Positions 53,969-54,543 of a DNA stretch of 64,000 nucleotides are shown piece after piece. Numbering within the stretch: the first letter of the stretch is position 1; each line of letters opens with the position of its first letter. The notes beneath the pieces are model-generated. The model did not search any database. It saw only the letters and a program-made list of their open reading frames with translations, and was not told where the DNA came from. The stretch spans positions 154,256,001 to 154,320,000 of the forward strand of contig OZ024741.1 of the NCBI GenBank assembly GCA_964016885.1, in the 5' to 3' direction. Source of the DNA: Eledone cirrhosa. Its lineage: Eukaryota. A program made the translations under genes and the position numbers.

Positions 53969-54096
53969 CATATATATACATATATATACATATATATACA
54001 TATATACATATATATATATATATAAAGGACGTAAAATAAAAAAATATTTTTTTTAAAAAAAAATTTAAAAAAAATTTTTTTCTTACTTAAATTTTC

Positions 54097-54178
54097 ACTC
54101 CAACTAATTAGTTTCTGCAATGGGATAAAGACAGTTACGTAATTCAACTGTCGAGAATTCATTGCGTCATCAGGAAGT
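54097..54178 (-). ncRNA. Mirror copy of the hammerhead-like motif
   Basis: Exact reverse complement of 54274-54355. Confidence 0.65.
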
Positions 54179-54273
54179 CTATTCTCAGTTAAGTCTCCAG
54201 GCAATGCGCGGACACTGGCGGCTCATTGAGCCGCCAGTGTCCGCGCATTGCCTGGAGACTTAACTGAGAATAG

Positions 54274-54355
54274 ACTTCCTGATGACGCAATGAATTCTCG
54301 ACAGTTGAATTACGTAACTGTCTTTATCCCATTGCAGAAACTAATTAGTTGGAGT
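54274..54355 (+). ncRNA. Type I hammerhead ribozyme-like motif with extended stem II
   Basis: ACUUC-CUGAUGA-c GCAAUG...GACAGUU...AACUGUC...CAUUGC a-GAAA-CUAAUUAG-UU-GGAGU. Confidence 0.65.
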
Positions 54356-54543
54356 GAAAATTTAAGTAAGAAAAAAATTTTTTTTAAATTTTTTTTTTAA
54401 AAAATATTTTTTTTATTTTACGTCCTTTATATTATTGTTCTGCATTCTCCTGCATTGAACCACCTAGGTACTATGACATAACCTGTGTATTTGCTGGCAT
54501 GGGCGTGCATCTGTGCGCTTATGTTAGTTGATATATTAAATTA

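Follow-up and report, generated by a model that had tools for sequence, protein, structure and literature searches.

In the present study, we analysed a 64,000-nucleotide stretch of the Eledone cirrhosa genome (the window) that holds a large palindrome within a (TA)n array. The palindrome is centred on a single T at 54226; its arms are perfect over 171 bp (54055-54397), and imperfect pairing through homopolymer indels carries them to 54020 and 54432, giving about 205 bp per arm, as the initial annotation had described. It is the sole palindrome in the window that passed the filter used (perfect arm of at least 14 bp, loop of 12 or less, GC above 20%). The centre and the arms had been placed correctly, but the right arm reaches about 54550, some 120 bases past the palindrome. 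The association with a TA array also holds, but the palindrome, described as lying next to such an array, has TA on both sides. The left half of this (TA)n target array was located by TRF at 53712-54024, where the junction overlaps the TATAT end of the element, and the right half at 54546-54778.

Between the two halves, blastn alignment to a natural reference copy of a 559-bp unit (L006:383-941, 35% GC) distinguished two arms. An inverted arm on the minus strand (54020-54225, unit 1-204, 99% identity) ends at a short 3' end, and a direct arm on the plus strand (54227-54550, unit 1 to about 322) ends at a long 3' end. By blast the direct arm extends to unit 326 at 54554; its last base shared with the unit was deduced from the rows for the variant T323A. 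Both arms stop at unit position 559/1, at the junction base 54226. Neither arm has called substitutions against the reference unit outside homopolymer tracts. A type I hammerhead motif lies on the plus strand at 54274-54355, and its mirror copy lies on the minus strand at 54097-54178, with a predicted cut between 54102 and 54101; a covariance-model match at 54080-54197 covers the minus copy, the model having been built with that sequence included. The segment between the two fixed 3' ends, 54433-54550 on the plus strand, is called here the tail; RNAalifold predicts two conserved hairpins at about 54437-54460 and 54488-54535, and the segment is a candidate binding site for a reverse transcriptase. 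The window palindrome is one head-to-head insertion of the 559-bp unit and no stand-alone element; the palindrome itself had been taken for the element, and this part of the initial annotation has to be given up in favour of the tandem unit. Among the inverted insertions examined, only L223 and L239 are also free of a spacer. The window copy is likely a dead end because unit 323-558 is missing and each strand has one ribozyme, and the lone palindrome is probably without function.

Each arm is part of a unit that is found genome-wide, on many contigs, in tandem arrays inside (TA)n. When one arm was searched against the window's own genome (3.0 Gb), 862 candidates were obtained, which indicates a high copy number; with 40 candidates scored, 42 of the 44 matches were full-length at 100% among the matches listed. 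Full units are 97-100% identical among the 150 listed, and up to 14 full units stand in one arm of an array. No unit-derived complex open frame of at least 130 aa was found in loci L001-L077. Since these are non-coding tandem units of low GC, each with a type I hammerhead motif, as is characteristic of non-LTR retrozymes, the 559-bp unit is a young, non-coding non-LTR retrozyme. The tandem unit in (TA)n supports the earlier reading of the locus as a non-coding retrozyme or Penelope-like retroelement. In sequencing runs of seven other organisms, 0.23-0.80 of the unit's words were present (runs with a share below 0.2 were left out as evidence), and short contigs matching the unit were found in two other-organism runs. 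We also observed that unit 135-195 (window 54360-54420) carries expanded A/T homopolymers and a small palindrome; this expansion is absent from older subfamilies. After the ribozyme, at 54366-54370, there is a splice-donor-like GTAAG motif, which reads GTAAGTAAGT in older subfamilies. Retention of a 5' intron close to the ribozyme has been reported for Penelope elements.

The present unit resembles the metazoan non-LTR retrozymes (PMC7229834; bioRxiv 10.64898/2026.07.22.740005) in that its tandem units are non-coding and each contain a single type I hammerhead, and further in its low GC (35%), its dispersed arrays and its thousands of copies. Its 559 bp compare with a typical length of about 300 and a range of 51-972 in the preprint. 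It differs from them in its long stem II, in the internal loop of that stem and in the pseudoknot predicted there. The strict targeting of (TA)n, the head-to-head arrays and the end rule described below are found here and are undescribed for retrozymes in the available text of PMC7229834 and of the 2026 preprint. Circular RNA has been demonstrated for those retrozymes and is proposed here for the present unit.

Every part of the hammerhead was found where the initial annotation had placed it. On the plus arm, stem I is formed by 54274-54278 and 54351-54355, CUGAUGA lies at 54279-54285, stem II is formed by 54287-54292 and 54330-54335 with a distal hairpin, GAAA lies at 54337-54340, stem III is palindromic, and the GUU triplet ends at 54350, after which the cut is predicted. 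GUU is a weaker cleavage triplet. A pattern of core and stem III with a 45-75-base spacer gave 10,753 matches in the genome and 0 for the reversed control; the invariance of core and stem III among these matches is by construction, because both are in the search pattern, and stem III, fixed in this way, is uninformative for covariation. The core pattern with a 6-40-base spacer gave 56 matches, mostly deletion derivatives or older subfamilies, while the core and the start of stem II alone, as found in an older subfamily, gave 1,796 matches against 9 in the control.

For 19 copies selected across the subfamilies, the hammerhead is paired in 92% of cells, the covariation score was reached by 0 of 500 shuffles, and slid controls pair at 32-45%. 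Stem II is 99% paired, with compensatory changes across subfamilies, and its pair 35-85 shows all four Watson-Crick types (GC 6, UA 6, CG 4, AU 3). In stem I, a C-G/U-G exchange and an insertion matched on both strands were seen in two subfamilies. The type I hammerhead fold is supported by this stem covariation together with the copy number. The C-A mismatch at the base of stem II, raised earlier as a caveat, proved to be conserved: C follows CUGANGA in 48/51 distinct contexts and A precedes GAAA in 51/51. A G10.1-C11.1 pair at the base of stem II is present in 47/51 contexts and is flanked by the extra C (54286) and the extra A (54336). A similar extra pair occurs in plant satellite RNA hammerheads. 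The Rfam hammerhead models, with which a search had been suggested, gave zero matches even at E up to 5-10; the matches of the Rfam scan were TA-repeat noise and one sub-threshold viral UTR model, with no hammerhead among them. The isolated hammerhead fold is not unusually stable (z -1.36), and the minimum-energy fold of a single copy is not the hammerhead (-21.7 against -15.2 kcal/mol, the latter calculated without the pseudoknot). The reality of the motif rests on copy number and covariation, because Rfam is silent and the isolated fold has this ordinary z value.

A pseudoknot joining loop 1 to stem II is predicted between GAGAAU (54266-54271, on the loop 1 side) and AUUCUC (54294-54299, in the internal loop of stem II), both on the plus strand. 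Over 36 loop pairs, the mean best helix was 4.9 bp, a value attained by none of 2000 letter shuffles and by 11 of 2000 partner shuffles. At the middle position, 49 distinct contexts have G-C, 14 have A-U and 3 are discordant (A·C 2, G·U 1), in a tally that omits 5 contexts with other letters and 32 unscored matches; this exchange may represent one or two events, because the sequences are related. The core, stem II and the pseudoknot pair are kept across subfamilies that are about 70% identical, which implies selection on the fold. In other hammerheads, stem I/II pseudoknots are common and are needed for speed (PMC3088659), and the signatures described for Penelope hammerheads include one additional base between A9 and G10.1 as well as a helix III that is palindromic (PMC4209133). 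The motif described here shares with the PLE variants of PMC4209133 the extra A9/G10.1 nucleotide, the G10.1-C11.1 pair, the palindromic helix III and an enlarged helix II, and with the hammerheads of PMC3088659 a pseudoknot holding stems I and II together, which is here predicted only. It departs from both in a second extra nucleotide (A) before G12, in the GUU triplet and in a stem II arm of about 50 nt whose internal loop gives the predicted pseudoknot strand. The combination of the extra C/A, the long pseudoknotted stem II and GUU is undescribed in the available texts, and supplementary lists may hold similar ones. With regard to activity, cleavage in vitro failed for 8 of 9 Xenopus retrozymes (bioRxiv 10.64898/2026.07.22.740005), and the PAc ribozyme requires protein for cleavage and is dispensable for insertion (PMC11167929).

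Insertions of the unit, read in the ribozyme sense, end at unit 204 or at about 322 (326 by blast), some 120 nt apart; both end sites are TATA and blend into the (TA)n of the target. A long end was paired with a short one in 54/54 inverted insertions examined, for which the chance with independently chosen ends is, as simple arithmetic, 2^-54. These comprise 30/30 in the window's subfamily (29 in one set, plus L047) and 24/24 in a third set (23 from a subfamily of about 73% identity, plus L247), of which 16 were recognised as inverted by their ribozyme coordinates alone; in L216 the long end stops 8 nt early. Non-inverted insertions in the sets of the window's subfamily ended at either site in 10/10 cases, one of them an older-subfamily copy. 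The 40 loci from which the third set came gave 1 false match, 15 non-inverted insertions and these 24 inverted ones, and 13 of the 15 non-inverted ones had a standard end; L229 and L244 do not abut TA. The long end was on the left arm in 14/29 inverted insertions. The junctions overlapped by 0-5 nt in 21/29, and the junction positions varied. In an RNAalifold analysis of 9 divergent copies, the tail forms two hairpins, and 5 of their 29 pairs show compensatory changes.

5' truncation and both direct and head-to-head inverted copies are present among the unit insertions. The truncations are only weakly enriched at the predicted cut site (5 of 40 loci exact, 10 of 40 within about 1 nt, by hand count in the first 100 of 232 rows), and 4-6 fall at other microhomology sites, against the 5 exact at the cut site. 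Clustering of 5' ends at unit position 1 was considered as a possible transcription start and set aside as unproven, the pile-up being partly a boundary and selection effect.

A Penelope tail is often at one end only (PMC8557442), and in PAc, an anole element, the tail lies between the two start sites of reverse transcription that define it; the enzyme cuts and extends both target strands and is predicted to form a dimer (PMC11167929). By analogy, the long and short ends of the inverted unit insertions correspond to the Penelope tail signature. Because a long and a short end are seen in every inverted insertion examined, a Penelope-type enzyme likely copies one RNA from two starts at once. The unit resembles EN+ PLEs (Hydra clade, PMC8557442; PAc/Poseidon, PMC11167929) in 5' truncation, partial tandems, an inverted 5' copy and a one-end tail; both insert into AT-rich or (TA)n DNA, and in both a hammerhead lies upstream of the 3' ends. 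Unlike them, it is without an ORF and has no sequence in common with any autonomous element examined. Its tail measures about 120 nt; tails of 30-40 nt are given in the available text of the EN+ PLE papers, and a local Hydra-clade family has one of 69 nt. The two start sites of the unit share TATA microhomology with the target, whereas those of PAc have no such homology (PMC11167929). The non-autonomous MRC1 of Chlamys is likewise a non-coding Penelope-type element with multicopy head-to-tail insertions; MRC1-type Chlamys elements resemble autonomous partners at the 3' end, and most Chlamys elements are without canonical hammerheads (PMC8557442).

The genome contains many Penelope elements and more than 10,000 GIY-YIG candidates. 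One intact local family carries CxCX5C, RW and DKT, the motifs described as typical of the Hydra clade, and in this autonomous family all four inverted copies among 20 loci obeyed the two-end rule, with the 69-nt tail. Inversion as a Penelope-type feature, which had been proposed earlier from general knowledge of these elements, is seen in local Hydra-clade elements too. The unit and this clade have in common the (TA)n target, the hammerhead motif and the two-end rule; similarity between their tails was not significant (19 and 154 of 300 shuffles scored as high). The linkage to a Penelope RT/GIY-YIG ORF, which had been suggested as a check, was not seen in the PLE loci examined (L078-L162). 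No autonomous element sharing unit sequence was found in a small sample of the GIY-YIG candidates, and no ORF-bearing element with the unit was found in 20 long-ORF or neighbouring regions, the Hydra-clade flanks, the short-stem-II relatives and 40 older-subfamily loci. A pattern linking the ribozyme to the Hydra N-terminal motif gave one match, a nested neighbour. ORFs beside the copies L093, L128 and L183 were considered as partners and set aside as separate insertions, with TA runs between ORF and unit.

Several other Penelope loci were observed during this search. L128 and L143 (C3:86.34-86.35 Mb), with about 70 relatives, form a young, apparently intact Hydra-clade family with 758-aa frames, a short-stem-II hammerhead, a TATA-like motif upstream and a 69-nt tail. 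At L073:1319-1560 (minus strand), a retrozyme, present to just inside its tail, is joined to the Neptune-like terminal repeat of L096 and ends in TA; this single chimera may be a template switch and a hint to a Neptune-like partner. L094, L095, L099, L106, L108 and L109 carry a hammerhead-like core UUGAAAA (U3-A8 type) beside Neptune-like Penelope ORFs. In L109 (L109:9472-9602) this core forms a small head-to-head palindrome in TA; in another motif, at L109:2358, the base of stem II is flanked by one A on either side.

We examined the variants of individual insertions with respect to the template. Both arms carry the same variants at each site that both cover. T441G has 15 matches genome-wide, which come from a single array and mark each of its 15 units covering the site, and T199A has 11, of which 8 are in one insertion on both arms. 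Together, these two variants fit one mutated monomer copied repeatedly, i.e. rolling-circle copying. G269A, with 15 matches at 7 places, is not private; it marks a small lineage and is uninformative. No A-to-G bias was seen by eye among the private variants. Mosaic arrays were also found, with A134G in 6/14 full units of L179, mixed A82/G82 in L041 and L044, and a further case in L167; they demonstrate that copying from multimeric templates, a switch of template or subsequent exchange takes place as well, and a single monomeric circle alone does not explain them.

We believe with considerable confidence that the window palindrome is an insertion of a Penelope-mobilised retrozyme. It was probably made by double target-primed reverse transcription, in which a Penelope-type dimer would act on one RNA, probably circular, followed by joining of the cDNAs. 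In the proposed course of events, tandem unit arrays would be transcribed, and the hammerheads, likely acting as dimers via the palindromic stem III and stabilised by the pseudoknot, would cut the transcripts into unit-length RNAs that are then ligated into circles. A dimer of a Penelope-type RT/GIY-YIG enzyme would bind the structured tail and cut both strands of (TA)n, and each DNA 3' end would pair with one of the UAUA sites that flank the tail (unit 204 and about 322). Both 3' ends would then copy the same RNA, passing round the circle for long arms, and the two cDNA ends would be joined, mostly via short microhomology. For the window copy, both cDNAs would have halted at unit 559/1, and for this reason the palindrome would have no spacer. 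The complete picture, which we advance tentatively and hold a little short of even, is that one dimer clamps the two-hairpin 120-nt tail, primes both target strands and sends two reverse transcriptases round a ribozyme-made circle. It would explain the Penelope inverted copy, the one-sided tail and the tandem arrays, and retrozymes would move as circles on Penelope machinery with a previously undescribed pseudoknotted long-stem-II hammerhead.

Two alternatives retain the element and differ in how it is copied. In one, which we regard as unlikely, the cDNA or an antisense template folds back and primes itself, after which the hairpin would be resolved by the endonuclease at the opposite boundary of the tail; such foldback self-priming has been put forward for head-to-head Penelope palindromes (PMC3846280). 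It fits 24/29 pairs of arm lengths, including that of the window exactly (206 against 328-122), and it also predicts variants common to both arms. Five of the 29 insertions nevertheless have arm lengths impossible for the foldback of one cDNA: L168, L174 and L181 clearly, exceeding containment by 88, 52 and 28 nt, and L037 and L178 marginally, although later loss of whole units could account for such pairs. In our reading, the offsets of the 5' ends are also against self-priming, as they are spread round the unit and often slightly negative, with no short positive loops, and with the sole Penelope enzyme to have been reconstituted, both DNA strands are extended, starting at two sites on the RNA (PMC11167929). 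In the other alternative, which seems similarly improbable, the template is a linear multimeric read-through RNA without a circle, the long arrays are homogenised by unequal crossing-over once inserted, and the ribozyme is a passenger or dependent on protein. PAc, which uses uncleaved RNA (PMC11167929), and a proposal of local array amplification (bioRxiv 10.64898/2026.07.22.740005) are in keeping with it, as are the mosaic arrays, variants duplicated in adjacent units and the weak enrichment of ends at the cut site. Against it stand T441G, fixed in 15/15 units of one array and absent elsewhere; T199A, whose presence on both inverted arms is not producible by unequal crossing-over within one arm; and the conservation of core, stem II and pseudoknot pair noted above.

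Far less probable than either is a regulatory role under selection, in which the palindrome would form a hairpin that conceals the ribozyme or supplies ADAR/Dicer, as the initial annotation had considered. A read-through RNA would fold into a duplex of about 200 bp (-332.8 kcal/mol, computed fold), and small RNAs of Penelope copies have been reported in rotifers, but the junction position differs between insertions, the head-to-head arrangement is read as a by-product of insertion, and no host gene was identified beside the palindrome. The window copy is itself too young to show selection, because neither arm has non-homopolymer substitutions. Least probable of all, to a nearly negligible degree, is a chimera created by foldback during sequencing or assembly. 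Errors are frequent in homopolymers and TA arrays, and in four public sequencing runs no read or contig spans the centre T at 54226; the same asymmetric design, however, is present in 53 other insertions. A chimera is also contradicted by the extent of the mirroring, which ends at the short end while the opposite arm continues to the long end, and by flanks that are not mirrored. The Penelope-mobilised retrozyme copied from two starts is the reading that we prefer.

Non-LTR retrozymes and their suspected Penelope link have already been published (PMC7229834; PMC8969392; bioRxiv 10.64898/2026.07.22.740005), the link resting on co-occurrence and pLTR similarity (PMC7229834; bioRxiv 10.64898/2026.07.22.740005). 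In a literature search that covered mainly openly accessible main texts, no description was found of this unit family, its ribozyme architecture or a strict two-end rule in retrozymes. Which enzyme moves animal retrozymes and whether circles serve as template are treated as open in the available text of PMC7229834 and bioRxiv 10.64898/2026.07.22.740005, as is the formation of Penelope inverted copies and tails in that of PMC8557442. The unit family bears on how retrozymes move, and its insertions can be counted because it is young, short and abundant. The 54/54 end rule and the array-private variant make the questions of the retrozyme enzyme and circle, and of Penelope inversion and tail, directly testable, and the tail plus ribozyme is a small, defined RNA for reconstitution. 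The hammerhead architecture described here was missed by Rfam despite about 10,000 copies.

Some other features were observed in the window. A 43-bp satellite of about 100 copies occupies 15160-19476, with stop-free plus-strand frames of more than 1,000 codons. At 31511-35457 lie the gag-like and pol-like frames of an LTR retrotransposon, interrupted by stops, with protease, RT, RNase H and integrase motifs recognised by eye. LINE-type endonuclease/RT frames and a mariner-like transposase fragment, also recognised by eye, are found at 49679-52450 (minus strand), 37671-39008 (minus strand) and 4262-4921 (plus strand). A very abundant repeat at 54779-55000 starts right at the TA array and is also present near 45.6 kb and 57.2 kb; its summed depth reached about a million in one public run.
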